Assembly (NCBI GenBank): GCA_965649765.1
Contig: OZ287748.1
Span: 105,090,001-105,154,000, forward strand
Source: Bispira polyomma
Lineage: Eukaryota
DNA: 64,000 nucleotides
Direction of reading: 5' to 3'
Shown here piece after piece: positions 3,252 to 56,800 of this stretch (position 1 is the first letter of the stretch; each line of letters begins with the position of its first letter). A program made the position numbers and the translations under genes. The notes under the pieces are model-generated. The model searched no databases. It saw only the letters and a program-made list of their open reading frames with translations, and was not told where the DNA came from.

Positions 3252-4352
3252 ATGGGTCGAGGAAAAAAGAGGCAGGTTTCATCACAGATTGCCTTATGTA
3301 GTCCCTGTAATGTATCTCACTCTAAACCCGTTGGAAACAGGTGTCGCCGTCCAACAGAGACAGAGTTCACAGAGGTAGAAACTGAGAGCAGCACATCCAA
3401 CTTCGATGACGTCCTCAGTCAGACTTCCGAGGCAGAGAATGTAAGTTCTGAACAATTTTACAAAGATATATACACTAAGCAACAGACCATGATGGAAACT
3501 TTCGTTACAATCGTGTCTAAACTTCAGGAAGATGTATCTGATTTGAAATCAACTTGTTCACCTCTCACCAATGAAATACCAGTAACTGGGGGAGCCATAC
3601 CAAAGGTCTCGGCAGCACGACCTATTCCTGCACCGCGTTCACCAGGCCTTTAGACTTCTTTCGGCAGCTTCTCCACAGGGACGTCACAGTTCCCGAGTGC
3701 GCCACATTCTCATCACACGTCTCTCCCTGGGTTTCAACATGAAGTTCCACATAACGTGTACCAACCCTGTCTTACTGAGCATTACCCTACAGTTAATCCT
3801 CAGTTACCTACACTGCCTCAGCAGGACAGCTATAACTAAGAGTTTACACAAAGGGCGATGCAGGATGCCATTCTGCCCACTCCAGATGTTCTGAGACAGT
3901 CAGCAGTAATCCAGAACGAAGTATCACAGTGTCTGGCCCGTTATGAAGCCTGGGCAGCTGACGAGTCATTACAAGGAAAGCTGATCACGAAACGAAAATC
4001 TGTTAAGTTGGTGAGATGAAACGAAGTGGATGATGAATAGGTTGTCCTATTCCCAGGCTCTTATCTCAAGTGGCATGTCCTCGGGTTCACCTTCCACTAG
4101 TCAGAATTCTGCTTCGTCGGGTGGCAAGAACGAAATGCCTTGCCGCCATTATATAAGAAAAACCAGTGTACTCATCAGAAGGACCATGAAGGAACCAATA
4201 CTATCTTCAAGCACGTCTGTGCAAACTGTTACCGTTTAAATAAGAAACTTAACCCTCACCCGGAAGCCAAGTGCTACAATGATTTACGGCCGTCCAAGTA
4301 CACCAGCAAACGCACCACAATAGGACCACAGACTGTCAACGGACACCACTAG
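3252..4352 (+). pseudogene. gag-like ORF1 of copy B (stops and frameshifts)
   Basis: N-terminal CSPCNVSHSKPVGNRC zinc-finger-like motif; C-terminal C..Y..NQC..H..HVCANC..HPEAKC finger, parallel to ORF1 at 29150-30133. Confidence 0.75.
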
Positions 4353-5479
4353 CAGTAACTTTAGCAGAAGTAATGTTTATATCAGTAGGAAATCAGATGT
4401 CGTCATTGAGGAAAATGTTTATTATGAGAACAATTGTAATTAGACTTTTATCGCGCTTAATCTCCCCTTAACTAAGGGGACTCTAAGGCGCACCAGCACA
4501 AAAGACAGTAATCCAATTTCCAAAATCAAGGGACAGAAAAGGGTCAGCACCACAGAGCGCGCTGGGGGGATGATAGAGACTAAGGTGAATATGCTTTAGT
4601 GTACAAGTGGATTTTAAGCTGCTTTCTAAAACAGGCTAGTGAAGGGGAAGCAAAAATCACATCAGGAAGAGCATTCCAAACAATGGGAGCATCAAAAGCA
4701 AAGCTGTGACCAAAGTGTTTAACTGACTAACAATAATTTAAGCTATAAGAATATTAGGCAAAATTATGTTATGGATGGTGTAGAAACAATTTTAAGTAAT
4801 AACTTGAGCTTTAGGGATGGACAATGTTTGGTTTTCGATTCTCATGATACCCCCTCCAGTGCTGAACATGTGTGTGGTTATAATGTGCCTTATACTGTAA
4901 AGAACTGTATTAATACTCCTAGTAGTATGAACTGTAGTCATGTAATGTCTCATCCTATTTTAGTGGATGTGTATCAAAGTGACAGTTACTTTAATTCATA
5001 TGTTTCAGCTTGTTATATTGTCTGTCATGATAATCTATGTTTTTCAGGAGTTTATCATTGGATCCATCTGTGTGGCCATTGGTCATTACAGAAAAGTGAT
5101 CTAAATCTAGACCAGATTTGGCCTATCTCTTGTGTGGACACAAGGTCACTACCTGTTATTATATCCAATACATCACCATACAATAAGAAACCATCACATA
5201 CCACAAAACCACGGATACAGAGAACCACACATACACACACAAACATTGGCAGTGCTTTTTACTATACTGACATAATTGACAAATTTCAAAAAATAACAGT
5301 AAATAATCACAATGTCAACAAATAGAGCTTTCAGCTGACAAATACCTAGATAAATCACTCTGACAGTCTCACTAAGAGACTGTACACACTACTTGTAAGG
5401 AGGACGTTGTATTAGACAACACAGTAATACAGGACACAGTCATATCAAGAGGACATGAGGGCATAGTGACTTCTAATAG

Positions 5480-17900: not shown

Positions 17901-20900
17901 TCGGAGTAAGAGGGAAATTCTTCACAAGGATGTAGAAGTGAAGGGTAGAGCAAAGAGGTCAGTCGAACCATTCAGAAAGGATTACCGCCAGCTGAAAAAG
18001 GGAGAAATGAACAAATTCCATAAGGTATGCACAAGTTTAATGATCACTTTCAATGACACCCCCAACTTCATCCTTAAATATACCATCTATGCCACCCCAA
18101 CATCAACTACAAATATGAATTTCCATTATTTAGGTTTACTTCACTTTCAACATCAGTGGTCATATTGTGACAGCCAGACTTTAGAATTAGAGAAACCCCA
18201 GTACTATTTTTACTTGAAGGAGGCCATGGCATTTGATTTTGCTGTCCTCACTGTTGAGAATCTATAGTGATATTAAATCAGATGCTTATGAACTGCAAAT
18301 TGAAAAGACACATGGTAAAACCAGACTCATTTGAATGGACTTACCAAAAGGTTAAAGTGGGTAAATAAAAGGGCATTTACCTTATTTTTGATGATATTTA
18401 AACTAATGATTGATTGGAGTTCCAGAAAATTAGATAGAACATCTTCAAAATGAAAATCTGTGTTATGAGATAATGTGCTCTAGATTTCTTTATTGCAACC
18501 ATGGAGGGCAACAACATGTGGCTGTATATTGCCATCCATTTTAAAATTTATAATTTCTCAAAAGCTTTGCATTTGTCTGTTGAAAGACATTACTTGTTTA
18601 TCATGTACTGTGTATTGTTTTCATCACCAGGCTTTAAAACAATTAAAGGCAGACGGAACCTACGATGATCTTGTGCTTCTTCACAGGCAAAGTGAGGCGC
18701 CTGCTGCACACTTTGGTATGGCTTTTCTACCTTGGCATAGGGAGTACCTATTTCAGTAAGTATATAAGGCTGAAAAACTAACTGCTTGTTTGGCTTCTTA
18801 TTCAAGTACACTGGAAATAAATTCGACGCTTGAGTAGATAACATATTCCAAGTGGACCAGTGAGAACATAAATAAGGAAATGAACGTAGGTAAAATAATA
18901 TGCCATGAATTTATTAAAAAATAATAAATATAGATATAATTTACCAATCAAAAGATTTAGCTGTCACTTGAAATTCGAGTGCACCTACAAGGCACAGCTA
19001 AACTTCATGTTCTGAAGAACACATCTGAGTCGTTAAACCCCAAATCCTTGTGTGTCATGTACAAAGTCTAAGATACTCTAAAGTGCTAGTTCCATAAACC
19101 TTTTCATGATTCCAATGTTAGGCTCATGTAATCCGTTGTAGAAAAAGTATTAGTATTTAGCAGTATTTTTAAGTCGGTGCAGTTTTGTAATATTAGTTGA
19201 TAAATTGACACAGTGGTTGAATATATGTCATTTCAAATAAGTGTATTGCTGCAGGATGTACACCAAGATTCTGGGATTCTCGTTTACATTTTGATAATTA
19301 TCGACAAATTTGGCCATTTTTTCTCCCACCGTGCAATTTAGGTATGAGGAGTGCGATCCCACAAAACACCCTTGAAGAAGTGTATGTAAAATATTATGTA
19401 TGTATATTGCTTAATATTTTTAAATCTACACACTGAAGGGTATTTAATTCCCATGTTTTATAAAAGCCAAATCTTATTGTTGAATTAATAAATTATACTT
19501 TTTCAGGTGTGAATTACAGAAATCTATTTTTTACACATTTGAAGAACAACACATAAAAATCTATTCAAACAAATATTTGGGTATACATTCAATGTATCAT
19601 TAATATCATAAAAAAAATTGAAAGTAAATGTTGGAAATTTGTATATGAGGTATATAGGTATTTTACTTTTTTTTGAGGTTGATTTCAGGCTTTCTAGCTT
19701 CACTGATTCCCCACTGTATCTCTACTTTCTAAACATCGTCTCTACTTTTGATTTCGGCCGATTTTTTTCATCCAAATATTTACAATGTAGGCACTTCCAT
19801 ATCTCAGATTAAATAAGAACTTCATAATGTAAAGGAAATCAAAAACAGGTTCCNNNNNNNNNNNNNNNNNNNNNNNNNNNNNNNNNNNNNNNNNNNNNNN
19901 NNNNNNNNNNNNNNNNNNNNNNNNNNNNNNNNNNNNNNNNNNNNNNNNNNNNNNNNNNNNNNNNNNNNNNNNNNNNNNNNNNNNNNNNNNNNNNNNCTGA
20001 AATAAGCATAACTGTAGTCATTGTGCACATGTGGTCACACTAGAAAACTTATAGATAAGTTATCTCATAAAACTGGTCAGTTTACTGGGATAAGACTTGT
20101 TAATACAGATTCTATTATATTTTCCGTGTTATATAGACTAGAGCAGGCAGCCAGGAAATTAGGAAACAAATTCTCAAAGTTGACTATACCATTTTGGGAC
20201 AGTTGTATGGACGAAAGTCTGCCAGAACCCAAAGACTGTATAGTGTGGACCAATTCTGGGGAACAGGGGATGGGCAAGTGGACAATGGGAAAGTCGCCAA
20301 GAACTGGGATGTGACATCAGATACTGCCTGCCAAAATATTGACCCAAAGGTAACACGACATGTCAGCGGAGCAAAGGGGCGTCTGCTGACCAGGGAGAAA
20401 ATCACCAACAATCTTCTCCCTTCGGCAACCTTTTTGGAGTTTGGCCGAGAATCACCATTGGAAGGTTACCACGGCAATATGCATGTTTACGTAGGTGGCC
20501 ATGCAGCTAATTTGGTGTGTTCCCCAAATGACCCAGTCTTTTTCTTCCTGCATTCTATGTTCGACTGCCTGTGGGATGAGTGGGCAAATCTGCCCGGTAA
20601 GGACAACACCTACCCCTTCCCTTGGAATCCATCACAAGGAGGGCCTGAGCATGGCCGCAACCAACCCATGTCACCTTTCGAACCATTGATCAACTGGGAT
20701 GGAATGTGGACCGGCTACACAGGTTGTCACGAACGTCCCTCAAAGATTCTGTGTTCAGATGACGATGACTGCAAGAGTCCCCAAGGTCTGCTCTTCTGTC
20801 ACAACTGCCGCTGCCACTGTAAAATCAGGAAGAAGGGAAACTGTAATGGTATGCCCGACAATGCTTGTTACTGCAAGGACGGCACTCCCGAGTGTGACTC

Positions 20901-26599: not shown

Positions 26600-27638
26600 G
26601 TGTATCCACCAGAAAACTCTGGTAGATACAATGGATTACGCCGCCGAAGCTACCACCGCCGCGTTAGTGTGTGTAGAGATTTTACCGTTACCGCTCTCCT
26701 GGGAAAACTTTTACACCTGCTCCTGAAATTTACAGGAAATGTTCTTTGTTACAAAAGCTTGCATTGGAGTAATTTTGGCCTCATTTTGAATAACAAGATG
26801 GCCGCCACTGGCGTTTTTTTGAAAATAATCAGGCTTTTTGTAGACAAACTGTGTCTGTTTCTCTGCTGTGGAAGGTTGAATCTCTTTATGGGTGATATGT
26901 TTGACGCATGCATATGTCCTGAATAAGCATGCAGACATTTGACCTTGAATCTCTTCATTCAAGGTCACTGACAGAGTGCCAAAGTACCTTAAGTGACTAA
27001 TTTTGGTCAAATTAATAAGTGCCTATATCTTGCTTAATATTGGTCTTAGAGGTTTGGGATCTGGAAACAACCCTCAGAAAAACATGAGCAGTGAATCTTT
27101 TTATGTGCTTAATTTTAAACTTAGCCCTCTCCCTCCAGGTCAAACAGGGATGCCCAAAGTTAAAAGTGCCTATATATTGCTTGTTATTGGTCAAACAAGT
27201 TTAGGGTGTAAAAGCAAGCTAAAGGAAATCATGGAGTCCGAACCTTTTGTTGTGTTCAAATTTGACCTCGGGCCTCTCCTTCATGGTCAAACAGGAATGG
27301 CTAAACTTTAAAGTGCCTATATCTCGCTCATTTTTGGTCAAACAAGTTTTGCATGTGAATCAAACCTATGTGAAATCATGGACTGGGAATATTTGATGTG
27401 GCAGGGAATCATTTGATGTGCTTACATTTGACCTTAGCCCTCCTTCATGAAGGTCAAACAGTGATGGCCGAACTTAAAAGTGCCTATCTCACACTGTAAC
27501 ACTTCAGCAAAAAATACCCTATAGCATATCATAGACTGCTAACTTGGGTGCTAGCTACAGTGCTTCCTACCTGGTATGTTTTATGTTCGTGGTTGATATA
27601 CAAATATGCATTGGTTGTCTGATGCACTAGGTCTAGTT
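26600..27638 (-). mobile_element. HINE-like (Helentron-associated) non-autonomous element with internal repeats of about 105-110 bp; same family as 46178 and 48546
   Basis: Reverse complement of the 46178 element: AACTAGACCTAG start, AAAGTGCCTATAT-type repeats, terminal GTATCCACC..GGTAGATAC hairpin. Confidence 0.75.
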
Positions 27639-28640: not shown

Positions 28641-28846
28641 TGCGGGGTAGACCCGCAGGGGATAGCTAGTTCAGTGCTACCAGAATTTTCCTTAACTTAC
28701 CTCCCTGGGGTCATAACCTTTAACCTCCCTTATAATTCGCCAGTTTGTACCTAGTGACCCCAGCTTTCCCGCCTTTTTTGCAGATCTATCACTTTTTACA
28801 TTGAAGTCAATCCGGCAACAACGCCATCTTAAATATTTTACTTTTT
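28641..28846 (+). repeat. Split direct repeat A1 (A2 at 34313-34518)
   Basis: About 206 bp near-identical copies starting with the hairpin TGCGGG-GTAGA-CCCGCA. Confidence 0.95.
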
Positions 28847-29149: not shown

Positions 29150-30133
29150 ATGGCCCCAAGAAAACTGTATGAGTGCCAGAAATGTGGTACTAGTCATGTC
29201 AAACCAATAAATGAAGACTGTTCTCGCATTGCCGAGGAGGAGACTGAGGATGCTGATACTGATACTGAAACGCAGAACTCTATTCAGTGACGGTGTGGCT
29301 TCTGCCGATATTAATGTGGAAATTTTAAAAGAACTGAGAGCCCTTAGTGGACGCATAACGTTAGTCGAGCAGAAAGTCGATCACGGCGAACATAGAGTCC
29401 AGTTTTCGAGGGCAACCTCAAGTCTGGAGGTTCCTGTCCAGACGCCCCAGACGCAGTTAGATGAACTACTGGTACCTACACTCCAGACTCTAAGAACTTC
29501 CCAGTCCCTCCAGACAGCAGTGGACTCCAGATTGAAGGAACTCGTCGCAATAAATGAGTCAGGTACATGTAAATCCCAGCGTTGGGGAACAGAAACAGTA
29601 TGGGTCAAAAACAAAATTTCTTGGCCACAAAGCTACATCCTGGGGGGACAAAACAAATCATGTGTTTCCTATGACTCTCTCTTAATGGCGCAATGGGTGG
29701 CTGGTTTTGCCAGCATAGCCAGGGAAAAAACAAACATTGATACTAAAAACCATATGCTTGAATACCTGGCACATCTAATGGAAGACTCACATGACTTTTC
29801 TTGGGCTGCTACTAAGGGCAGCCATGCTGTTTTGTTATGCAAAATGGAGGAGGGAAAAGTGTCTTGGGGGGACTCCCATAAGTTACATCGCATTCGAAGG
29901 GCCCATGCCCAAAAAGTTATCACTCAAAATTACAATAATAGTAGCAATCCCAAGAAAAGTCATGACAAAGCCGTTTCATGCAGGTATTACCAGAAAGGCA
30001 CTTGCCCCCAGAAAGGGGAACATGAAACAAGGGGGGTCACATATAGCCATGTATATAGTGAATGTTTTAAGACAGGCGCTCCTACCCACATCCCAGCAAG
30101 GACTGCCGAAAGAATCCCACAAAAAACGAGTGA
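29150..30133 (+). pseudogene. gag-like ORF1 of copy A (two frameshifts)
   Basis: MAPRKLYECQKCGTSHVKPINEDC start; WPQSYI, QWVAGF, SHAVLLCKMEEG core; CRYYQKGTC..H..SH..SEC finger, completed by YPHPSKDC..KNE-TGA after a 1-nt shift near 30076. Confidence 0.85.
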
Positions 30134-30155
30134 GGCACTGCAGTAATGCAGTGCC
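30121..30155 (+). promoter_or_regulatory. -1 programmed ribosomal frameshift signal (gag to pol)
   Basis: A AAA AAC slippery heptamer at 30121-30127, 6-nt spacer, perfect 9-bp stem GGCACTGCA-GTAA-TGCAGTGCC; the -1 frame is the long ORF 29791-30912. Confidence 0.8.
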
Positions 30156-32499
30156 AACTCGCAGATCTTCTAAAGCACAACTAAGTGGTAATAAGGGTGT
30201 AAATAATGTACAGGGTTTTGATTCTAGAATTGTATATAACAGTAGTCATGTTCTGCATGGCAGTGCTTGCTGGAGGATGGATTGGGCTAAATGTCAAAAC
30301 AAGTCATATGCTGATGTACTTAAAAGCTTGTGTCTCTCCAGTTGTGCTATCAAGAATAAAAATCCATGTAATGTCAAAGTTGTAAAAATGTACAGTGATA
30401 GTCAGTTGCCCCAGGTGGGGTCATATGTGTATAAAAACAAAGTTTCAGGTATTGCATGTCATGACCTCCGTGCAAGGTTGCACACAAAAGCCAACAGCTG
30501 TGTCAACAAACCTAGATTTAAAAACCCTAGCCTCATGGACAAACCACTAGTGTCACCAAAACCTAAAAACAACACTCGCTATGTCAACAACCCACAATGG
30601 GTTCTTCCCACTTCTAAAAAATTCACACCTCTAGAGGACAATGGTCCAACTGTTAGTAGCTGGGCCAGTGATATCACTGACAAAACTCAATGTACTGACA
30701 CACACGTAGTCTCACAAAGTATCCAAGCTAAAAGTAGTGTAAATAGTCAGAGACAGGTAAACGCAGACAAATATGACTTGGAATTACAAGTGAAATCCAA
30801 GAGTAGGGATCTCATTAAGCAAGCACGTGAGGTACCTCAGTTCCAGCAGTGGGACGCCCAGAACACAGATAAGTATGGTTTCATTTCGTTAAGCAAACTT
30901 CGTCTTCCTTAAACAGATAAGCGAATTCGTTCAGAGGAAACATTGTTGAAATTATATAGTGTGATCAAAGACCATACTTAGTGGATTATTGGGACAAGCA
31001 GTTACCACTGTTAATACGCTATGGTTTTCCGCTTGATTTCCAATGTGACAGTAAACTCTCCCACAAGGAGCAAAATCATCAATCCGCAGTTCAGTATCCG
31101 GATGACGTCAAGGCGTACTTGGCCGAAGAAACACAACTAGGTGCTATGCTATGCCCTTTTGAACATATTCCAATTGACAACCTTCACATTTTTTATGACT
31201 AGGGAGAAACCTGAGGGGCTCATAGACGAGTCATAATCGACTTGAGTTTTCCTCACGGGGAGTCAGTAAACTCAGCAGTGGCCAAAGACAAATATTTAGA
31301 CACCTCTTTTGCTCTCACTCTTCCCACTATTGATACCATTACCAATAAAATCTCACGCCTAGGTTGTGGTACCTTACTATATAAAATTGACGTCAGTCGA
31401 GCGTTCCATCACGTAAAGATGGACCCGCCTGACTACAACCTGTTAGGACTTAAACTTGAGCACTATTATGTAGATTCCTGCCTGCCGTTCGGTTTTCGGC
31501 ACGGAAGTGCCATATTTCAATGCCTCAGCGATGCCGTTAGATATATTATGAAAAATCACGGCCATGACATCACAAATTACATCGACGACGTAATCAGGTA
31601 CGGTGATGTCATAGAAAGTGAGTGTTCATTCAAAATTTTGTATAACCTTCTACACGAGTTTGGCTTTGCCCTGAGTGAGAAAAAAACTTGTACAGCCTAG
31701 CACAGCAGTTATTTGCCTCGGGGTGTTAGTTGATACAGTTGAGTTAACAGTCTCTTTACCTGAGGAAAAACTTACCAAAAGTAATGTTCTAGTTAAAGAA
31801 TGGCATCACAAAAATACCTGCACAAAGCGAGAACTCCAATCCTTTCTAGGCAAACTGCTATACATTTCCAAATGTGTGAGGGTTTCCTGGGTATTTCTCA
31901 ATCACATGCTTGACGTGCTGAGGTCTGCAGGGGCAAATCAAAAAGTTGAGCTTATCCCCGAGTTCCACCAGGATGTAAACTGGTTTAAGCAATTTTTACC
32001 TAAATTCAATGGTAAGGCCTTCTTTGAACATGATCCAAACACCGATTGCATACAATTGGATGCCTGCTTACAAGGGATGGGGGGTCGTTGCAACAACGAC
32101 ATGTATGAATTTCAGATTCCCTTGGGTTACCTTAATATGACAATAGTACATTTAGAAATGCTTAACATTTTGGTGGCCATCAGACTCTGGAAATCAACCT
32201 GGCGGGGCAAACGTTTAATACTGCAATGTGATAATGCAGCAGTGGTCACCATTTTAAATTCAGGAAAGACCAAAGACTTGACCCTGGCAGCAATTGCCCG
32301 TAATATTTTTATGAAAGTGGCCTCGGTTGATATTAGTCTCAAAACTATGCACATTTTGGGCAGACTGAATACAGTGGCTGACCTCTTGTCGAGATGGCAC
32401 CTTACAGTAGATAGTGACAAAAAATTATCAGAAATACTACCTAATTCAAAGTAGGCAAAAATTAAGCCACACATGCTAGAAATAGACTGGTCTATTTAA
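30121..32499 (+). pseudogene. pol (long N-terminal extension, RT, RNase H) of copy A
   Basis: YGFPLDF, DLSFPHGESVN, KIDVSRAF, CLPFGFRHGS, NYIDD, LDACLQGMGG, IVHLEMLN, CDN, ADLLSRW; ends EIDWSI-TAA at 32497-32499. Confidence 0.93.
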
Positions 32500-32506
32500 T
32501 TTACAG

Positions 32507-33495
32507 ATGTACCCTCTCAGTTAAGAAAGATAACCACTCAAGTTGCAAACAGAACTCACCAGGCTTTCAGACCAGCCACTGAGAGGGCTTATACAAACAT
32601 GTTTAGGATTTTCCTAGCCTTCTGCAGTTTTGCTCAGGTCAGACCTCAGCTTATTACCCCCTCAATTATTCTTTCATTTCTAGAAGTTCTAGCAGTCAAC
32701 CAAGTTTTCACTCCTTCCATAGCAAATTATCTCTCTGCAGTTAAAGCCAAAATGGCCTTATATGGCCTTGATGTCACTTTTTTTAGATCCCAAAATTAAG
32801 TACTACCAGAAGGCCTTAGTCCTTAATAGCCCCTTCAGGGCAAAAATTAAAACAGTCATTGATATACCACTTCTTCAGCAAATGATTCAAATATGTGACA
32901 GCATGTACATGGGACTAAATTTTAAAGCCCTGTATCTCATAGCTTTTTTCTCATTTCTCAGAATATCAAACCTAGTACCCCATTCTGCTGCACAGTTCTC
33001 CCCTCTAGTTCAGCTGGCCAGGGGGACGTGCTATTTGCTCCTCCTGGCCTTCACATTACCATTAAATGGTCTAAAACCCTTCAGTCAAAAAATGTTATCA
33101 AAGTATTAAAAATTCCTACCCTGAATGGGTCCCCTTTGTGTCCGGTGGCAGCCACTAGGATCTTACTAGCAGTTACACCGGGGCATAAAAACTCCCCTCT
33201 CTTTCAAATCAAAAAAAATCAGAAATAGTATCCCATGATTGATACCCAGGTCAGAAAAAACCTTACCTCAATACTCCCCCAATTGGGTCTCCAACAATCT
33301 GCTATATCCTTCCACACCTTCCGTCGTTCAGGTGTCACCCTGGCTTTTAATAGTAATGTACCAATTCAAGACATACAGAGTCATGGCACCTGGACGTCGG
33401 ACTGTGTGTGGAAGTATATCGTTCAGGACCACAATGCCTCTGAGCAGGTGGCCCTCTCCTTCAAGGCCCTACTTTCTAAACCCACTACCTCCTAA
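32507..33495 (+). pseudogene. Tyrosine recombinase of copy A
   Basis: AFRPAT..AY, NYLSAVK, AFFSFLRISNL, KWSKT, LCPV, FHTFRRSG, HGTWTSDCVWKY (catalytic R-H-R-Y). Confidence 0.93.
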
Positions 33496-33499
33496 TTGG

Positions 33500-34287
33500 G
33501 CTTTAGGGCTTTATATACATACTTTTACATTATTAATATATACTTAAATGTTAAATATAAATATTTTGGGCCACCTTAACACCTTATTTAATCTTAAATC
33601 TTTTATATACAGTTATTATATTTCCTTTGGCAACCTTAAAGAAAACCTAAGGTTACCTCATAATTAAAATTCAAATCTAACCCCAACTTTATGTTAGGGC
33701 TAACCTTAAATTCATTAACTTAAACTCAATTTTAGGTAACCCTAACTTCAAGCTAGGATTACCCTAAACTCAAAATTCTTCTTCACCTTAACCTGGAAAC
33801 TTTCAGGCTAAGGTCACCTTAACTCAAATTTTAAAAACCTTCCTCGTGCTTAGGTGGCCCTAAACTCAGTGTGTAAATAAATATTAGATATAACATAGAA
33901 GCATTATAAAGAAGTGCGCATACAACACAAAAGCCGTCAGTGCGCAATTCGTAACCGTACTTTATCTGGGAGAATAGATCACGGATAAATAGTTCCGTCA
34001 GTAGCTACAAAAATAGTTCACAGTAAGTTGGAAATTATCTTAGTATTTGCTCAAAAATATACTGTTGCCAGTTTTATAATAGAAATAAAGTACACGGGCT
34101 TGTACTTTATTGGCGAATCAAGGACAGCCTTTCGGCATAATGGACGAGGGCCGGTAGGCCCTTGTCCATTATTCCGCCGTAAGTCAGTCCTTGATTCACC
34201 AATAAAGTACTGGCCCTTAAACTTTATTTCTACATTAAGCTAATATCCCGAACTCTGCCTTTTTTACTTACCTGTGTTACATCATAG
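33500..34287 (+). repeat. Split direct repeat B1 (B2 at about 35925-36301), interrupted by an insertion
   Basis: CATACTTTTACATTATT...CTTACCTGTGTTACATCATAG present twice; B2 has small deletions. Confidence 0.93.
33907..34237. mobile_element. Insertion of about 330 bp in B1 ending in a hairpin of about 155 nt
   Basis: Absent from B2; CATTA on both sides; palindrome at about 34080-34232 centred on GGGCC-GGTA-GGCCC. Confidence 0.8.
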
Positions 34288-35417
34288 TTCAACTTCTCTT
34301 GGTAGGGCACTGTGCGGGGTAGACCCGCAGGGGATAGCTAGTTCAGTGCTACCAGTATTTTCCTTAATTTACCTCCCTGGAGTCATAACCTTTAAACTCT
34401 CTTATAATTCGCCAGTTTGTACCTAGTGACCCCAGCTTTCCCGCCTTTTCTGCAGATTTATCACTTTTTACATTGAAGTCAAACCGGCAACAACGCCATC
34501 TTAAATATTTTACTTTTTCCCACCCTCTTCCCCTACTACTTCCTCTGCAGTTTTTAGCTATTCGTACATCCGTTAAAGCGCTTGCTGCTGTCCCTGGAGT
34601 CCCTTAAGTCTCCCTTTACACCTTGGCACAGGGGTGGGGGCTGGAAGTTATGGGCCCTGAGTTATGCATTACTGCTGGCTTTCATGGTTCCTGGCCCTTG
34701 GGCGTTTTCTGGGACCCCAGGTGACCTGTCTCCCTTCTAATCTGGGTAACACCAGGGCCCCTATGGGGCCACACTTTCTTTTAGGTAGCTGATTGCTGCT
34801 GAGATTGCGACCCCTCAGTTTTCAACAATTGTACTTTACTTTATTTTTAGGGTAAAATCCCCTTATGTGTGTATTACATTAAATGTACTTTAATAATGTT
34901 GTTTTCTTGTCACGTAAGGGCGTGACGTGTTATAGTAATAGTATGTGAATTTTTGTATGTGGATAGCAGGCATTTGGAGGCTTGACGCGCTATCACCAGA
35001 TGTTGGTGTGTTTAAATAGTACAAGTATAAAGTAATATAAATCAACTTTGTGATTTCATGTATAATGTGTGTAATGCGCAACCTTAGTGTTGTAGCTAGT
35101 GTAGTGTCAAGTATATATTATAGATATCATGCAATTGCATGTCATGTAACCATAAACAAGTGTTTAACGTTGAATATGTAGTTTCAGGAGCATGGGACAC
35201 ATGATTCAGCCGTCGTGGTCAAGCAACTCTCTTCTCTGCACAGCACGGACTCACTCCTGAAAAGCAACAGCAACTCGATTTGCATTTTATGTCTGTATGC
35301 ATGTTTTCCTCAGATCATGGTTATTGTATGTGCTAGGGGTGTAAGGTGTAATTTGTTAGCGACTCTTGGACTTTATTGTGAATGCTTTTAGTATTTTAGC
35401 TAGTCACCATGGTCTTA

Positions 35418-35901
35418 TGCCCTGGTCCCACCGGATATACGTTAGGTTAGGTTAGTCACGCAAGGGCTGAGTAAATATTTGCTGCAAAAGTTGATGCAAA
35501 ACCCAAATATATTGCTTTTGTTCACGTGAAAGGCGTCAACAGATGTTAAAATTCATGTATTAGTACATCAAAAGCTGTCAAGTCTCGCATGGGATGCATA
35601 AGTTCACATCAAAGTACGTATTTCAATCCCTGTATGACATGTATGAGTACGCAAATACACGTAAAATGACGTCATAATGACGCACATGTACACACTGTGA
35701 CGCATATCCACGTTTTAGTACGTCATACTTTTGCATCTCTTGCCTGTCCAAATTTCAAACAGTTTGAAATCATAAATTTCTTGTGTGTCATCTCTCACGT
35801 CAGGTTATGTATGTTTATGTATATTACGTCAGCTCCCACAAATCCTACGCAAATTGATTTTTGTAACGACTGGTTGTGTGATGGCCGGTGGGACCAGGGT
35901 A
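35418..35901. mobile_element. MITE with 15-bp perfect TIRs
   Basis: CCCTGGTCCCACCGG (35420-35434) and CCGGTGGGACCAGGG (35885-35899). Confidence 0.75.
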
Positions 35902-37149
35902 TTAAATTCAATTTTACCCTTTTTTGGGACTTTATTTACATACTTTTACATTATTATTATATACTTAAATGTTAAATATAAATAGTTTGGGCCACCCTAA
36001 CACCTTATTTAATCTTAAATCTTTTATATACAGTTAATATATTTCCTTTGGCAACCTTAAAGAAAACCTAAGGTTACCTCATAATCAAAATTCAAATCTA
36101 ACCCTAACTTTATGTTAGGGCTAACCTAAAATTCATTAACTTAAGCTAGGGTTACCCTAAACTCAAAGGTCACCTGAACTCTCAAATTTTAAAAACTTTC
36201 CTCGTGCTAAGGTGGCCCTAAAAAAATATTAGATATAACATAGAAGCATTAAACTAATATCCCCAACTCTGCTTTTTTTACTTACCTGTGTTACATCATA
36301 GGTATTTCTGAAAACCTCCGACATATGCATTGGATCTGAACTGTAGAATTACAAGTATTGTCCTCTATTTAAACCTTAATAGACAAGACATAATTAAATT
36401 CCGTGTTTGGTAAAACAAATGTTTATCTTTCAACATTGCAAATTCCTTTACGCTCTATGTGGCTACAAATAAATCATAATTAAAATATAGGAACTTGGTT
36501 AAGGTTCAAATTACCCGGTTTCACCTGCAGAAAGTTCAAATAGATAATTTTGTGTTATAATAAATTAGTTACATTCTATACTATATCTATGTATATATGT
36601 GTGATTCTTATAAAAGAACGATGATCTTGCTGTGAACAATATATTACATGTAAATATATTTAATGTCATTTTATAATTTTCAAGTTAGAGACTATGAAAT
36701 CTATGTTTTTGATATCTTATTAACAGTCATATCAATATTGTATCCAATTGATCACTTCACTACTATTTCAAGCATGCCTAGAGGTTACAACCCACGGGTC
36801 TTAATGAGTAGTTGGTTTTTGAACTATCGAATAAATTTAATAATAAAATTTGGTTTACTAGGAAGGTATAGGTACGAGGTGCATCATGCATCAGATGAAA
36901 TTGGGAATTGACCACTTTATGATTTGCAACTTAAAGTTGAATTAGATAATTAGATAACACCATAATGCCCACAATACTATGGTATCTGAGTGCATCATGA
37001 TGTTAAGTAATTAAAATAGAACTATCACTACATGTGTTATTAGACTATCAGGTTGAACTTTAAATTGTAATTTACAAATTCTCCCAAAGGCCATTCTCAG
37101 TGATTACTTTATAAGTGGAACTATGATTACTGGAAAAGTTATGGCTACG

Positions 37150-46177: not shown

Positions 46178-47212
46178 AACTAGACCTAGCGCATCAGAGA
46201 ACAGATGCATATTTGCATCCACCAGAAAGAAAAAGCACCCCAGGTAGCAAGCACCCTAGCTGGCACCCAAGTTAGAAGCCTTGGATTTCTTAAAGGGCAT
46301 TTATGCTAAAGCCTTAAATGGCACAAATGGATTTACATTGCAAAACTGTGGGACCAATAATAAGTGTGAGATAGGCACTTTAAAATTTAGCCTACCCGTT
46401 TGACCTTGTACAAGGGGTCCAAGGTCAAACCTGACCACAGCAAAAGATTACCAGCCTATGATTTTCTATAGATTGGTTTCACATCCCAAACCTCTACAAC
46501 CAATAATAAGCAAGATATAGGCACTTTTAAGTTTGACCAAGACTGGTCTTGAACGAGGGGCCCCAAGGTCAAATCTGAGCACATCAAAAGATTCCCAGTC
46601 CATGATTTTCTATAGGTTGCTTTGGTACTCCAAACCTCTTGGACCAATAATAAGTGAGATATAGGCACTTTTAGGTTTGGCCATTACTGTTTGACCTTGA
46701 AAAAGAGGCCAAAGGTCAAATCTGAGCACATCAAAAAGATTCCCTGCTCATGATTTCCTATAGGTTGGTTTAAGATCCCAAACCTCTAGGACCAATATTA
46801 ATCGAGATATAGGCACTTTTAAGTTTGGCCAAAATCGGTCACTTGGGGTACTTTGGCACTCTGTCGATGACCTTGAATAAGGAGATTCAAGGTCAAATGT
46901 CTGCATGCTTATATACAGGACATAAATATCTGTCAAACCTATCACCCGTGAAGAGAGTCAGCCTTTTACAGCTGAGAAACAGACACAGTTAAAAGTCTGA
47001 TTATTTTCAAGAAACGCCTGTGGCGGCCATCTTGCTTTTTTAAAATCAGGCCAAAATCTAGGCAAGTTTTTGTAATAAAGAACATTTTCTGTGAATTTAA
47101 GGAGGTGTAAAAATTTTCCCAGCAGAGAGGTAACGGTAAAATCTCTACACACACTGGTGCGGCGGCTTAACATAATCCATAGTATCCACCAGAGTTATCC
47201 GGTGGATACAAT
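46178..47212 (+). mobile_element. HINE-like element with internal tandem repeats of about 105-110 bp
   Basis: AACTAGACCTAG start; repeats GATATAGGCACTTTTAAGTTTG..TTGACCTTG..CAAGGTCAAA; 3' hairpin GTATCCACCAGAGTTATCCGGTGGATAC. Confidence 0.8.
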
Positions 47213-47801
47213 AATACCTTACAGAGATGAAAACTAAGGCATCTAATCGTATTTTAATTTAATTTTAGGGCAGAATAGGTCGTACTTGACAATTTTATTA
47301 GAATCCATTAGAGACCATGATGTGGATCTCAAAGCTACTTTCACCCGAAACTGATGTAATACTTTAACACAAAGCTGTGTAAACAAGGAAGAAATGGTCC
47401 ATTTTTAGAAGATTTGCCATAATTATACACACATTGATATATGGATTGTATGGCACATAATACGTATTAAGATGACAGTTAAAATGTACCAATCACCAAA
47501 TAACTAAAACATATGTCACTTAGTATAATTTGTACCAATCAGAATGCAAATACGCTACCGATAAACTGAATTAAAAGTCACACAAAAGTTAAGCAGTGTA
47601 GGTCCGACAAAACTCTTTCACACGCAATGTTAATATCAGTAGTGCATTTGTGTGTTTCTATTATTAACCCCTAAAAAAAATACAAAATATATAAACTCAT
47701 TATTCGACATGACAATACAAATGAATATGTTTTGAATGATTTTTACTTTAAATGCACTTTGTTTACATGACACAGTGTCTTCCATTGTTCGTTAAAGCCG
47801 C

Positions 47802-50800
47802 TCATTCTCTCGAGTGGTTGCACCTTGTCTTGCGGTCGGCCTGTTTCAAGTTCACTGACGTATTAAGCTGCTTGGCTCGGAGCCGAGACCAGACAACATG
47901 ATCAGACAGGGCCAGGATCTGCGCGGCCTGCAGTGCTGCCGCCTCTGGGCTGATAACTGTACTACAGCCCAAACCTGAAATAACAAGGCACTGAGTGTGA
48001 AGCGATTCATCAATTCATAAACAACGTCCAATAAATGTAAAACAGATAGAATACACCCAGCCCACCAGAGAGCTTATAAGTCACTTTAAGGCTTTAGTAA
48101 CTCAAACCCAAAAATGATAGCCACTTAACCACGTTTTACATGTTACGACAGAAAAACCTTCAACCTACACTACTTTTGTTATTAAGTCCTCAAAGTCAAT
48201 TTGTAAATACAAGCTTTCAATGTATGATGAGTCAAAATGATAAATGAGGAATTAAATAACAATTCAAGTTCAATTTTATAATTTTTAAGATATGTTTTAA
48301 CAATTTATCAGCAAAGAAAATTACATATAACAAGGAGTAAAATTGTCAGAAAAGTATCAATATTTGTCCAAGTACACCCTTCATAAACGTGACACAAAGC
48401 ACATACATATAAGGCATCAATACTACAATACTGCACACCACCAGATAAACAAAGATTTCAGCATTATTTTGTGTGATTTACTTTTTCTATAAAATTCACT
48501 AATCTCAGAAGTACTCAAAGTTATTATATTGCAAATTCAACATTGAACTAGACCTAGCCCATCAGAGAACCGATGCTATATGTATCCACCATAAATACAA
48601 AGCACCCTAGGTAGCAAGTACCCTAGCTAGCACCCAAGCTAGAAGCCTATGATTTCCAATAAGGCATTTATGCTAAAGCCTTAAATGGCACAAGTGGGTT
48701 TCACATTGCAAACCTGTGGGATCAATAATAAGTGTGACCTATGCACTTTAAAGTTTGGCCTATCCATTTGACCTTGCACGAGAGGTCCAAGGTCAAATCT
48801 GACCACAGCAAAAGATTACCAGACCACGATTCCCTATAGGTTGGTTTCACATCCCAAACCTCTACAACCAATAATAAGCGAGATATAGGCACTTTGAAGT
48901 TTGACCAAGACTGACCTTGAACGAGGGGCCCAAGGTCAAATGAGACTACATGAAAAAATTCCCGGGCTTTGATTTTCTACTGGTTGGTTTCATATTCCAA
49001 ACCTCTAAGACCAGTAATAAGCGAGATATAGGTCAAATCTGAGCACATCAAAAGATTACCAGCCCATGATTTTCTATAGGTTGGTTTGGCACTCTAAACC
49101 TCTGGAACCAATAATAAGTTATCTAGGCACTTTTAAGTTGTGGCCATCCACATTTGACCTTGAACGAAGGGCCCAAGGTCAAAACGGACCATATCAAAAG
49201 ATTCCCAGGCCATGATTTCCTTTAGGTTGGTTCGTATCCAAAACCTGTTTGACCAAAAATAAGAGATATAGGCACTTTTCAGTTTGGCCATCCCTGTTTG
49301 ACCTTGAAGATGAGGCCCAAAGTCAAATCTTAGCATATCAAAAGATTCCCTACTCATGATTTCCTATAGGTTGGTTAGATCCCAAACCTCCAGGAAAAAT
49401 ATTAAGCGAGATATAGGCAGTTTTAAGTTTGGCCAAAATCGGTTACTTGGGGTACTTTGTCACTGTGTCAATGACCTTGAATGAAGAAATTCAAGGTCAA
49501 ATGTCCGCATGCTTATACAGGAGATATATATCTGTTAAACAGATCACCCCTAAAGAGATACGACCTTCTACAGCTGAGAGACAGACACTAATTATCTTCA
49601 AAGAAAAGCCCATGATGGACATCTTGTTTTTCAAAATAAGGCCAACATTACTCGCAGGCAAGCTTTTGTAATAATGAACATTTCCTGTAAATATCAGGAG
49701 ACTAGATGCAAAAGATTTCCTAGGAGAGTGGTAACGGTAAAATCACTACATACAATGACGCGGCGGCGGTGTAACAAAGCGTAATCCAATGTATCCACCG
49801 GAGTTTTAAATTTTGCACAACATACACCAAAACATCAGATATTTTTAACTCCATTTTTTGTCAAGAAGCTATATGGGTGAAAATAAGGATAATTTCATTA
49901 AAATTATAGCTAGCTATTGTTTTACTTTGTATAAACACCCAAATTACCTATTTTAATAATTTGTTTTTCACATAACTTTGCTTTAAACCTGATTTAAACC
50001 ATATAAACTAGCTTATCATCAAGGACTGATCAGAAACTAACCAAAGCTATGTTATAAAATCAGTCATCATGCATTTCCTCTGAACATAAGGTGTAACTTA
50101 TGTAAAAACTATCTACTTTAAGGCCGATAATATAATATTTTGACGAATATCCCCAATTTCCGAAGATATGCATTTGACCAAATCGGCTCTGAAACTTGTT
50201 TTTAAAAGCTAACCCAAGTGAACCATCGATCTTTGGCAAAGATCGTTGCAGCACTACCAAAGATCACCATGGTAGCCACTCACCAGAAGGTAGCCTCAGT
50301 GATGACCACACATCTTGGGCCCCCCAGTCTGGTTTGGTGGGTGGGCAGTTGATGACGGGCCAGGTAGCGTTACCCGCCAGTACGGGACCCAGTCCATTAC
50401 TTCTTCCAGCTACGGCAATAAACACAGTAGGCATGGCCGCACCTGGTAAAGGCATTGTATATAAACCAATGGTTAGACAATTACAGGTGATGTTACCCAC
50501 CAGTACAGGACCAAATCCATTACTTCTCCCAGCTACAGCAATAAACACCACTTAGGAACACCTCCACCTGGTGAAGGTATTGTATAAACTAATGGTTGGA
50601 CATTTACAGGTGTCCCAACACCAAATCTCAAGAATTTTCTTAACCTCAGACAATCTAATTCTTTAACACAATATTTTCAGCTAATTGTCGAGAGACAAAA
50701 TATCTTTGTAAAATACCTTTAGGCGGACTAAACTACTGTTTAAATACACTCTCCAATACACAAGTGTTTGATGTCACAGAATTTGAGGAAAAAAAATATG

Positions 50801-53800
50801 GAATTCCCCTCCAATTTCGCCATTTTGAAAAGAAGTAGTCTGTCATATATACAAATATTATTATATATATTACATTGTTTTAGACAGGCCTGTCGACCTG
50901 TCTACCCTTCGGACTGTCGAATTGTCTACCCTTCAACCTGTCCACCTGTCTACCCTTCGGCCTGTCTACCCTTCGGCCTGTCTACCTGTCTACCCTTCGG
51001 CCTGTCTACCTGTCTACCCTTCGGCCTGTCTACCCTTCGGCCTGTCGACCTGTCTACCCTTCAGCCTGTCTACCCTTCGGCCTATCGACCTGTCTACCCT
51101 TTGGCCTGTCTACCCTTCAGCCTGTCGACCTGTCCACCCTTTGACCTGTCCACCCTTCGGCCTATCGACCTGTCTACACTTCGGCCTGTCTACCTGTCTA
51201 CCCTTCGGCCTGTTGACCTGTCTACCTTTCGGCCTGTCGACCCTTTGGCCTGACTACCTGTCCACCTAGCTAAAAATACAATATTAAACATTTCACCCAC
51301 AAAAATTTGATGTGAAGATATTTTTTTATGTTTTCATGACATGCCAATCTGTCGACATGACAATTTATATATACATATATATATATCACCTATATATGAG
51401 ATGTATATATATATAGAGAAACTATATTTTATCAAATATCTTTTACACATGAATTCCTACACAGAAGTATATGTATTCATACACAGGGAGGGTTATAACA
51501 GCAAAGACAGATCTCCATATGCCTTTACCTTCATACTCGGCCAGTATCTGGAGTGTGTCCTGTGTGGTTTTATGAGCGGACGACACGCGCAGCTCACACG
51601 GCACTCCCAGAGAGGAGCAGACAGCCCGGATCTTCTCACAGTGGTCCATATCCGAGGGAGATCCCATCACCACGGCAACACGACCACGCGGATCACACCT
51701 TAGACTCTATTATATACAGTAGAACCTCTATTATCCAAACTTCTATTATATCCAAATATACGACACTCTCCTAAATTTGTTTACCTATTGTTTTGTACAC
51801 AAATGTGAGCAATCATCGATTAATAGTAGGGGTGAGACGGGCCCTAAAAAAGCACCCCGATTAATCAGTAGCGTCTAACCGGTTCGAAACCGGGTACCCG
51901 TAAATTTAGTATGCACCAATCTCAGAAACCCGTCTAACAAAATGGCGGCTGATGTAAACAAAATCTTACGAAAAATAAAGGCAAATATCTGGGGGAATAT
52001 TGGAAATTAGAAGAAAAACGCATGTTGGGTGCTCTAATTTAACCAAAGTTATTGTTTTGGTGAAGATATTTATAACTAGAAAACGGTTTTTGATAACAAA
52101 AACGAAGCGTCCCTAAAGTTGAAATAATAATGAAATTGTTTAGTGTACAAGGTTTGATATTGTTTAAAAGTTGACATATAAGCAGAATCAGCACTTTTGG
52201 TCAATGTCAGCTCGAAAAGGATCACCATTTCCGAGATGACAGACGTTTTCTAAAAAGACGCAGAAATTGAAGATGGTTGCCCAAATCAAAAATTACTATA
52301 AAAATTTACATAAAAGAAAAATCAGCCCTATGAGTCGAAAAGGAGCTTGAAATCGCTCTATCTAGCACCGTTTCTGAGATAAAGGACATTTTCGAAAAAG
52401 ACGCAGAAATTCAAGATGGCCGCCAAAATGTAACATTTTTTTAAAAGTTTACATTTAAGTAAAATCAACCCTGTGGGTTGAAAATTAGCTCGAAATCGCT
52501 CTATCTAACAACGTTTCTGAGATAACGGACATTTTCGAAAAAGACGCAGAAATTCAAGATGGCCGCCAAAATTTAAATTTTTTCAAAAGTTTACATATAA
52601 GCAAAATCAACCCTGTGGGTCGAAAATGAGCTCGAAATCGCTCTTTCTAGCACCGTTTCCGAGATAACTGACATTTTCAAAAAAGACGCAGAAATTCAAG
52701 ATGGCCGCCAAAAATTGAAAAAATGTTTTAAAAGTTTATGTATAAGAAAAATCAACCCTGTGGGTCGAAAATTAGCTCCAAATTGCTCTATCTAGCACCG
52801 TTTCAGAGATAATGGACATTTAAAAAAAAAACCTTAATTTTTAAAATTTTTGAAATTTAAATCATTTTATATCAGTAACGATCGCATATTTTTGGATGGG
52901 GTAAAAAATAAATAAAAATTCAGGCTATTCTATAAAAGTTACGCGCTGCATGTACTGGTCTAAAATTAAAAATAAAAAAAATCCTCACACGCTCAAAAAA
53001 GCACAAATCAACAAATTTTTTTCCCCATTTTGCATGATTGATCGACCCTGTCAATCAGTCAATTATCACCAGATTGATCTAAAAATTTACGAACATCTAT
53101 GCTTTGGTATTTGCAATGTGCATCCCAAATTTCATTGAACTATGACAAGTACTTCAAAAGAAAAGTTCATAAAAGTGCAAGATGGAGCAAAATAGAGCAA
53201 AATACTCATTTGAAGTACTCAGTACTCATTGAGTACTGGACTTAGAACTGTGAATTTTTTACATCATACATAAAATCAAAAAGTAGATGAATAACTTATA
53301 CCAAGAAAAAGCCGAAATCCCAATAGTTTCCGAGATAGCAAAAAGTACCGATTTTTCGAATTTCAATAAAAATCAATCGGTTGGCAATCAGTCAATTATC
53401 ATCCGATTAATCTCATCAGCGTCTCCCGTCCTGTAAATTGCCTTACTAAGGTACATACCAAATTTCATTAAGCTATAATGAATACTTTTTGAGAAAACCT
53501 AGTAACAAGCACTTTTACACCCCCAGGGTCACTTGACATTTAAGTAGGCCAAAGTTTAAAGCCAAGAATATGAAAAAAATTTCCCACTCCTGGTTAAGAG
53601 AACTGCCAAAAATAATTTTGATGCAGATAATATTGAAGGAGATATTCAAGGAAGACCATGCGGCGGCGGCACAAGCGGCGGTGAGGAAACCAGGGGTGAA
53701 ATCAAATAAGCGCCCTTTTCAAGGGACCCTTAATTACAAGCGATAATATAAGAGTTTTAACTTAAAACATACACGTTTTCGGGTCCTCGAATCGCAAATT

Positions 53801-56800
53801 TCACTCGGGTTTTCCCCAAAATCGGCCCGTAATCGGGTAACCGGTCCCCCGTCTCACCCCTAATTAATAGCAGATCAAAGGTCCATTTCAATCATGGTTT
53901 TTTATCCGCTGCACGCAAGTTATGGAACAACCTACAACAAAATATTAGATGCTCACCTTTTCTTTCAACCCTTAGAAGCAAACTCAAGACCTCTCTCTAC
54001 CAAAAACTTTATTCCACCTAACACCGTCTTGCCATCACCGACTCCATCACTGGTAACGACCCTATTTACAACACGACTACAGAACAATGATTTTAATGGT
54101 TGTGCCTTAGAATGCCCTAGTATGAAAAGTAAGCACCATTACGAAATTGATTAGATTAGAATAACGACTTGACCAAAGATGAAGCAACATAATCAAAAAA
54201 GACAAATCCATCACTTTTAAAAGGGCCTATTAAAAACAAACTTGAAATAACACAATACACTTCATTCCATGCGTTCCTTGGTCAATATTTTACCTTGACC
54301 TTGTCTGCCACCCATTGGAAATTACGTTTGACCTTGTTCAAGTCGTCAGAGGTCACGGTGTCAAGGTCACGGTACACCTGCTTGTCCTTCATGAGTCGCT
54401 TGTCACCAGACGGCCACAGTCGCCAGGAGTCAGAGTCGATGACATCAGCGAGGATGATCTCACCTACCAGAAAGTAACACAAGAACAGAATGGAGTGGAT
54501 GATCTCACCAAACGGAAAGTAACACGAGGACTGAATGGAGTGGATGATCTCACCTATCAGAAAGTAACAAGGACAGAATGGAGTGGATGATCTCACCTAT
54601 CAGAAAGTAACACAAGGACAGAATCGAGTGGATGATCTCACCTACCAGAAAGTAACAAGGACTGAATGGAGTGGATGATCTCACCTACCGGAAAGTAACA
54701 CAAGGACAGAATGAAGTGGATGATCTCACCTACCAGAAAGTAACAAGGACTGAATGGAGTGGATGATCTTACCTAACGGAATGTAACAGAAGGACAGAAT
54801 GGAGTGGATGATCTCACCTAACGGAAAGTAACACAAGGACAGAATGGAGTGGATGATCTCACCTAACGGAAAGTAGCACGAGGACAGAATGGAGTGGATG
54901 ATCTCACATACCAGAAAGTAACGAAAAGACAGAATGGAGTGGATGATCTCACATACCAGAAAGTAACGCAAGGACAGAATGGAGTGGCCCATGTGGCTTT
55001 TCTTGGGGCTTCCGCAAGTGCTAGACAATGAAAATAATTACTGGGCAGCTACAATACTCCTCTATACTCCTTAAGTTTTGCTAATACACATTCTGTTTGT
55101 TTCAGATACCGAAAATTATTTGTTTCTATTATCTACCTAATTGAATGCAGTTTATTATCAGAAGTGAGTTTCGCTAAATAAAACAAGCACATTTCCAATG
55201 ACATTGCAAATAGAAGTTATAAATCTGCAAAAATGTAGCATGACTGGTTATATTTTCTAAATATATTGTACCTGTTTATGTAAGTTAAGGTTTTTCAGCC
55301 ATTTCATGTCCATTGTACCGATACAGCAATATTTACTTTCGGTCAGCAAGAATTTTCGTCTCAATACCGACACCACCGTCCCAACCCTACTTGGAATAAG
55401 CTAGCCAAATAAGTATGTCATACATACTGGTTTTCTTTTATTGTTTCATCATTTTTACAGTTTCTTAAATTTTTACAGCAAAAATCATCTCGCCTTGCAA
55501 AAAATAAATCATAAACAATATCACAAATCTATTTTTGCTGTACAATAGTACATAGAACCTCCACTACCCAATCTGCAGTAAATCTTAGAATGGATTTGAT
55601 GGACATTCTTTCAGTCTCCAAAATTTACTACTACTTGGTATTTTATACTAAACTGCCTCTTATTTTGTCCAAACAACAGTTTCCTTTCCAGTGTTGTTTG
55701 GACAAATGTGATTTTGCTGTGCTATCTTTTAGAGGTGTGACGGGCATGGCCCCAGTAATCGTACAGGTCTAACCATCTCAAATTTGGGTACCCGCAAATT
55801 TAGTATGAACCAATCTAAGAAACCAGCCTGGCAATATGGTGGCTGATGTAAATTTAGATTAAAAATAGCAAATATCAGGAAAACGTATATTGCTTGCAAG
55901 AATTAGAGCAAAATTTTTGTTCTGCTGAAGTGATTTATGACTACAGGCAATCGTGCAAGATATTACAATTCTCAAACATTGCTGAGTTCATAAATTGCTA
56001 GTTTCACTTTGGTTTCCAAACAAATTGGGCGCATTTGGTTTAAATGCTAAAACGATCTATTGGAAGTCAAAAGCAAGAACCGGTTTGACCAAAAAATATA
56101 TAATTAAGAAGAATTATTGCACAAAATTGTGTAGAAACCTTGCAATATCACCATATCTACATCATAACCATCTTATTATGGGCTAATTTAATATATTTTT
56201 GAATTAAAAGTTTTGTGAAAATCAATATCCTGTTTAGAGTTACATTTTTGTTTGTTTTATGTATCATTGGACATTTTCAGGTGGGAACCAAAATTTAAGA
56301 TTTTCGCCCAAACTTTTCTTTTGGAAACCAGTTATAAATAAAATATTCGAATGAAACACTACTTAATATGATGCAGTGCTGTACATCAACCTCAGTGCTT
56401 ACCCGAGCTGGTGTCTACACCAAACTCAATCTTCATGTCAATCAGTGCACAGTCCAGAGACGCCCAGGCCCGCTCTAACACCTCAAACACAGTCACCGTA
56501 GTGCGAGCCATCACATCGTACTCTTCTTGGCCAATCACAGTGTCACCAAACTTAAACTCAGAAGCCAAAATCTGCTCCATAGACCACTGGGGGTCACCAG
56601 CTGCATCATCCTACAACATAACCACAGAGTATGACTCACACTGGGATATAACGACAGAGTGTGACTCACATTGTGATATAACCAGAGTACAGCCACAATC
56701 TGCTCCATGGACCACTGGGATCCACCAGCTGCATCATCCTGGAACATAACCACAGAGGGTGACTCGCACTGACATAAAACCACATAGTATGACTCGCCCT

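Follow-up and report, generated by a model that had tools for sequence, protein, structure and literature searches.

The window, a stretch of 64,000 nucleotides of the Bispira polyomma genome, contains a retrotransposon whose gag-like and pol reading frames overlap, and the locus raises the question of how the product of pol was made. A sequence-only reading of the same stretch had placed a -1 ribosomal frameshift signal of retroviral type at the junction, together with a splice signal for a tyrosine recombinase (YR). Here we present the anatomy and reading phase of this junction, its conservation, two classes of junction among the relatives of the element and the interleaving of these classes, all of which the sequences show. 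Sequence comparison makes it very probable that programmed -1 frameshifting produces a Gag-Pol fusion in this family of Ngaro-like YR retrotransposons, and that the window preserves the signal in a dead copy.

The element and its gag/pol junction

The element lies on the forward strand between repeat A1 at its left end (28641..28846) and repeat B2 at its right end (35922..36301). A1 is 96% identical to repeat A2 (34313..34518), and repeat B1 (33502..34287, with a palindromic insert at 34080-34232) matches B2 in pieces, giving the split direct repeats A1...B1-A2-B2. A gag-like ORF1 (29150..30133, with frame switches near 29285 and near 30075) carries two C-terminal Cys/His fingers and ends in K-N-E-stop, the TGA standing at 30131-30133. 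It is followed in the -1 frame by an N-terminal extension of pol (30121..30909) with a RIVYNS...WRMDW...SYADV motif at about 30223-30327, by the rest of pol with reverse transcriptase (RT) as well as RNase H (30910..32499; stops at 30910, 31200 and 32452, frame switches near 30978 and 31690), and by a YR ORF in four pieces (32507..33495). Domain matches comprise RVT_1, a weak RNase H and the YR, in the order gag, RT/RH, YR; the YR matches to PF13495 (E 7e-5) and PF00589 (E 1e-3) are both under the curated cut-offs. Neither a methyltransferase (MT) nor a protease domain turned up when the window pieces and seven homologous pol proteins were searched. All ORFs of this copy are interrupted.

On repeat and gene layout, the best reading of the element is a Ngaro-like YR retrotransposon of the order DIRS, the Ngaro layout being defined as in the extracts of PMC3783388, PMC8547959 and PMC3266345. 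A DIRS1-like identity was rejected, the terminal repeats being direct, not inverted, and no MT domain having been found. Between A2 and B2 lie 1.4 kb of unrelated DNA (34519-35921). Elsewhere the window holds a third, more distant RT/RNase H remnant on the minus strand (736-1749, 29% to the pol homolog P0122), and an AT microsatellite, satellite-like repeats of 143-170 bp (inverted copies near 26650-27600) and several short-period tandem arrays (19854-19990, 46300-49800 and 50800-58000).

The slippery heptamer A AAA AAC occupies 30121..30127 of the forward strand. It is followed by a 6-nt spacer, GAGTGA (30128..30133), which is the last gag codon plus the gag stop, and by a perfect 9-bp stem-loop (30134..30155; arms GGCACTGCA/TGCAGTGCC, loop GTAA), a putative stimulator on the evidence of folding and of footprints in homologs. 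These parts are present just as the sequence-only reading had described them. Positions 30127-30131 can in addition pair with 30157-30161 to lengthen the stem. The folding energy is -16.5 kcal/mol (z -5.2), and none of 200 shuffles folds as well. From the heptamer the -1 frame, open at 29779-30909, reads KKRVRHCSNAV. An XXXYYYZ heptamer, an overlapping ORF2 in the -1 frame and a stem 5-9 nt 3' of the heptamer, three of the criteria for -1 frameshifting, occur together in the window. A simple search for H-type pseudoknots downstream of the heptamer gave no candidate in the window, and an Rfam search returned four matches only, all at chance level (E of 1 or more).

How unusual this arrangement is can be stated for the window itself. 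A perfect stem of at least 8 bp at 5-9 nt follows 1 of 440 XXXYYYZ heptamers on the plus strand, namely AAAAAAC at 30121-30127, and 4 of 410 on the minus strand, at two places. Heptamer and stem pairs are thus expected by chance about one to two times per 128 kb; the pattern alone is modestly rare, and the case therefore rests on position and conservation.

Reading phase of gag and pol at the junction

In the present DNA the heptamer is not in phase with the long gag ORF (29211-30146). Because this copy is broken, we infer the gag phase at the heptamer from homologs and from other copies of the family. Up to about 30077 four gag homologs follow the frame of this ORF, and from there to 30130 they follow the next one (P0002, for example, with 78% over 18 aa after the switch, E 2e-8). 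The frame matched after 30077 ends HPSKDCRKNPTKNE-stop and reads A AAA AAC GAG TGA. Other copies were represented by contigs from runs X1, X2 and X3, which belong to one study and at most two samples. One extra base behind 30073 is carried by 191 of 442 depth in X1 and 70 of 101 in X2 (two contigs each), and is absent from X3 (0/72). The restored gag frame with a loss of one nucleotide near 30076, on which the earlier proposal depended, is thus backed by the homologs and by the X1 and X2 copies, X3 being without the base, and the gag end identified through homologs does read the heptamer as A AAA AAC.

In most other copies (92-96% of depth) TAA replaces TGA as the gag stop (X1 5755/5975, X2 1098/1198, X3 826/874), an exchange which is silent in the -1 frame. 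Summed contig depth, which is not the same as copy number, is maximal over the signal (in X1, 5975 at 30132 as against 593 at 30082 and 444 at 30181). Of the differences between contigs and window, the 40 listed leave the stem untouched, 384 further differences existing. The stop at 30910 is not common to most of the covering depth of other copies. Three contigs span the heptamer into pol (85-90% identical, low depth); their net length difference from the window is +2, +2 and +1 bases, which puts them out of frame with it, and they are read as separately decayed copies.

Intact pol homologs have about 800-860 aa, of which 330-380 residues stand ahead of the RT core. The first 120 residues of 28 of the 55 long pol homologs match window 30130-30405, every match being in the -1 frame; used as a query by themselves, the initial 70 aa of this frame gave no match. 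Three homologs (P0157, P0162 and P0163) start MRHC..AV, the -1 reading of the stem, and in these and in P0165 the RHC..AV stem reading is continuous with the whole of pol. P0165 is a single ORF of 971 aa which changes from gag to pol at the junction (...CRRAKERVRHCNAVP...) and runs on to the end of RNase H, whereas the gag of its sister P0021 ends CRRAKND. These matches, and the natural Gag-Pol fusion ORF of P0165, support the earlier claim that a -1 slip at the heptamer enters the pol frame.

The same N-termini bear on another route, in which Pol would be a separate protein, its translation either reinitiating after termination, at an AUG that overlaps the gag stop (AUGA), or starting at a GUG in the 3' arm of the stem. 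Reinitiation of the AUGA type is known from caliciviruses. Where the N-terminal motif is preserved, in 25 pol homologs, three have the MRHC start, at the overlapping AUG, and 20 start M-P/Q/L/H, which would be compatible with a start called at the stem GTG. A victorivirus precedent for AUGA reinitiation between Gag and Pol is given in the extract of PMC3542737. The starts of these homologs were, however, called by a gene caller, the initiation site is GTG in the window copy but GTA in most copies of the family, and the -1 frame has its first AUG at residue 53, which falls within the conserved motif. Reinitiation also leaves unexplained why the distant -1 loci, described below, keep the heptamer in phase in 8/8 cases with the gag stop following 0-13 codons later. 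We regard it as quite unlikely, and -1 slippage remains the preferred reading.

Junctions in the relatives of the element

A pol-alignment scan delivered 85 loci with 30-47% identity, 5 of them from genome contigs and 80 from metagenomes (kept out of 99). Viral contigs yielded no relatives with either the gag or the pol alignment, nor did metagenome contigs with the gag alignment. L081-L085 are eukaryote-type YR retrotransposons within contigs assigned to bacterial metagenome-assembled genomes; most probably they represent misbinned host DNA. A gag finger lies upstream of RT in 43 of the 85 loci, the other 42 being truncated or too decayed and left unclassified.

In eight of the 43 loci pol is open at -1 and overlaps gag by 37-70 nt. 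Each of these eight carries an in-phase A_AAA_AAY (C in seven, T in one) of the kind found at 30121..30127 of the window; three of the eight are near-copies, which leaves six distinct families. The background is 7 such motifs per 14,073 gag codons, or a chance of 0.6-1.1% per overlap. That A_AAA_AAY keeps its phase and position across families with 30-58% RT identity contradicts a chance meeting of heptamer and hairpin in a decayed copy, an explanation which the similar pairs at two places on the minus strand of the window would favor but which we find hardly credible.

A second class has pol in the gag frame behind a single stop (27/43 loci). This stop is TGA in 27/27, as compared with only 4 of 39 pol stops, and its context is TGA-C in 23/27 and TGA-CTA in 11/27; the extract of PMC3542737 gives UGA-CUA/CGG as the type II readthrough motif. 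No in-phase A_AAA_AAY occurs in the 290 tail codons of these 27 loci. Seven broken loci each show one of the two signals (three the heptamer, four TGA-CT). The sequence-only reading is supported as to the frameshift signal but overlooked the UGA-C stop that takes its place in many relatives. One locus, L054, fits neither class, its pol being open at +1. The gag ORFs of L054 (3165-3170) and of copy B, the other copy in the window (4350-4355), both end TAG-CAG; a TAG-CAG junction with pol at +1 is possibly a third junction type, with the shift at the stop, or else the product of indels in decayed copies.

The C-termini of Gag proteins are in line with these junctions. All figures for the 142 gag homologs found (36-56% identity) come from the 120 listed, and these proteins may derive from few host assemblies. 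A complete second zinc finger is present in 85 of those listed, and 67 of the 85 end K-N-E/D-stop; the rest comprise four with K-N-x, seven with KN[ED] plus a short tail and seven others. The KN follows the last Cys at 2-10 aa, and in 71/71 of the homologs listed a terminal KN comes directly after S, T, A, P, V or L. Codons for all six residues can end in A, as would be expected if the DNA reads NNA AAA AAY. A second, unindexed search gave at least 144 new cluster representatives, 58 of them with the finger; among the matches listed, KN(x) is terminal in 25/58, lies within a longer tail in 11/58 and is missing in 22/58, some of which belong to the same-frame class. In gag bodies KN makes up 0.4% of dipeptides. 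P0114, from a second gag subfamily, has an out-of-frame tail, HGCTQVGVHP; as far as the protein can tell, back-translation gives a different palindromic stem immediately behind the KN site.

The strong conservation of terminal KN[ED] at the protein level would also suit a reading of K-N-E/D as a protein motif of the Gag C-terminus, with a role for the hairpin in packaging or in reverse transcription, and with a spliced or subgenomic RNA as the source of pol, the more so as the element appears to splice for its YR. Such a motif accounts poorly for the restriction of the preceding residue to NNA-capable codons, for internal KN followed by unrelated tails in L011, L027, L041 and L051, for the absence of the in-phase motif from 27/27 same-frame relatives in which the same finger is present, and for pol frames that open only 37-70 nt ahead of the gag stop, just far enough to include the heptamer. 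We consider it quite unlikely. Very unlikely is a fusion made by polymerases, during transcription or reverse transcription, slipping on the A run. P0165 does demonstrate that frame changes happen at the junction on the DNA level, but at 7/7 aligned sites the run comprises exactly six A, flanked by a 5' C and a 3' pyrimidine, the stem stands at ribosomal spacing, and Lys never precedes KN in the 71 homologs listed, so that longer A runs seem to be avoided.

The stem is more variable than the heptamer. Stems of -15 kcal/mol or lower starting 4-10 nt after the heptamer occur in 5 of the 12 frameshift rows (window included), as compared with 5.6% of 250 control positions and 0/27 same-frame rows; seven of the 12 lack a strong stem at this distance, L027 having one at 12 nt. 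Stems of distant families are unrelated in sequence, and when seven frameshift sites were aligned with MAFFT, nothing beyond the C-A6 core came into register. L051 and L068 have a common GAGGAGTC stem with a U-G/U-A change. Footprints of the window's stem in proteins were found in all three frames in 11 homologs, the same stem being kept with varying loops. The GTAA loop is present in the window, but a conserved GNRA loop was rejected: the footprints GTAKLQCQ and GTAVLQCQ, and also P0255, would on back-translation imply other loops, and the GNRA detail of the earlier description is to be dropped. H-type pseudoknots were likewise rejected as evidence, the only candidates (L011 and L059) having scores reached by 5-10% of control positions. 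The one in L011 (1041-1090) would pair GGCG/TGCC with GTGGTT/GACCAC, its score not being above controls.

Frameshift and readthrough modes interleave on RT/RH trees, where quick trees need three changes, and a single split between the modes is rejected (p-AU 5e-11; 37 rows, unrooted tree). The 37-row test left out L069 (long branch), L023, L037, L038 and L053 (near-copies), L079 (short), L054 (unclassified) and proteins without DNA; mode labels were set before the first tree and the split test was run after it. The nearest DNA-backed relatives of the window are of the readthrough type. These trees suggest that lineages changed at least three times between A_AAA_AAY frameshifting and UGA-C readthrough, the best reading being that the two modes are interchangeable in evolution. 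Repeated exchange suggests selection on the ratio of Gag to Gag-Pol and not on the mechanism.

Copy B, with its gag stop at 4350-4352, is too decayed to classify; it scores closest to P0221, L009 and P0218, which stand with readthrough-type rows on the tree. The weak frameshift candidate CCCTTAAC that had been named near 4465 was wrong, the heptamer being non-canonical and lying 113 nt beyond the gag stop of copy B.

The window has a putative splice donor in gag (29560..29568, cut after 29562, phase 1) and a putative acceptor, TTTACAG, directly 3' of the pol stop (32500..32506, phase 2), which would join the donor in frame with the YR. Among relatives, a donor-like motif 560-720 nt ahead of the gag stop occurs in 18/32 as against 14/96 control windows, and 18 of its 19 matches are in phase 1. 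After the pol stop, 16/34 show an acceptor-like motif as against 161/849 control windows, with 12 of 16 matches in phase 2, the phase complementary to the donor. The YR frame of 34 relatives is that of pol in 14, +1 in 9 and -1 in 11, and this use of all three frames argues against one fixed frameshift between pol and YR. Across the clade the YR is probably made from spliced RNA as GagN-YR. The layout of Gag, Gag-Pol and spliced GagN-YR proposed from the window thus survives the comparison, the relatives having phase-matched splice-like motifs.

Proposed expression and comparison with known systems

Ribosomal slippage or readthrough and their efficiency, the role of the stem, splicing and packaging into particles are here inferred from sequence features. 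In active elements most ribosomes would read Lys-Asn-Glu and then stop, giving Gag. A minority would be held up by the stem while AAA is in the P site and AAC in the A site, move back by one base and go on to translate pol; the product would be a Gag-Pol (RT/RNase H) fusion about 1,150 aa long. As no element-encoded protease was found, this fusion would itself carry RT into the Gag particle, and the YR would come from spliced RNA. In the wider clade the same fusion would be reached either by A_AAA_AAY frameshifting or by UGA-C readthrough.

In the literature searched, partly as extracts, no gag-pol slip site or readthrough in YR elements was found described; the YR-related papers searched by terms were PMC3783388, PMC6681497, PMC13003380, PMC3266345, PMC9210276 and PMC8547959. 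It is quite possible that gag/pol recoding in YR elements has been conjectured before. The junction signal is real, well supported and of a familiar type, in an element class for which none was found described. We are evenly divided on a wider claim, that this YR clade follows a protease-less retrovirus-like plan (Gag, a recoded uncleaved Gag-Pol and a spliced GagN-YR), with repeated swaps between A_AAA_AAY and UGA-C at one junction and perhaps a +1 shift at UAG-C in L054, none of them described before. If true, the clade would be a natural experiment on interchangeable recoding modes, and for the YR the proposed frameshift model would give way to splicing. The expression of RT in elements of the order DIRS is largely unstudied, the literature extracts examined only annotating three ORFs. 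A defined slip site and a leaky stop would make the Gag-Pol fusion of a protease-less retrotransposon testable with ordinary reporters. With the recoding sites, pol annotations whose start is an arbitrary Met or GTG codon would also be put right, and the junctions would supply a set of natural invertebrate-like recoding signals.

Frameshifting by -1 between gag and pol is textbook knowledge for retroviruses. The signals described here resemble those of retroviruses and Ty3/gypsy elements in the class of heptamer, the spacer of 5-9 nt, the 3' stem, the short overlap of gag and pol and the position of the slip site directly after the Gag zinc fingers. Unlike those elements, the present ones belong to the order DIRS, with a YR instead of a DDE integrase, without LTRs and with no aspartic protease found; their heptamer is almost always A_AAA_AAY, and their stimulators are unrelated between families. 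The extract of PMC5009743 lists A_AAA_AAC among the most shift-prone heptamers on mammalian ribosomes and summarizes a 2003 survey in which -1 gag-pol arrangements were common in animal LTR elements (pol at -1 in 28/51).

The 27 relatives with one frame and a single stop resemble the type II UGA-CUA/CGG readthrough of alphaviruses and the UAG readthrough of gammaretroviruses. Gammaretroviruses use UAG-G with a pseudoknot (PMC3542737, in extract), whereas the relatives use UGA, mostly as UGA-C, and 0/27 have a strong local stem at this stop (-15 kcal/mol or lower, local structure only). With Ngaro, of the same order DIRS, the element shares the arrangement A1-gag-RT/RH-YR-B1-A2-B2 with no MT domain found. 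For Ngaro, Poulter and Butler (2015), as quoted in the extract of PMC13003380, proposed a frameshift between RT/RH and YR; in contrast, the recoding site here is at the gag/pol junction, and the YR lies in all three frames with splice-like signals.
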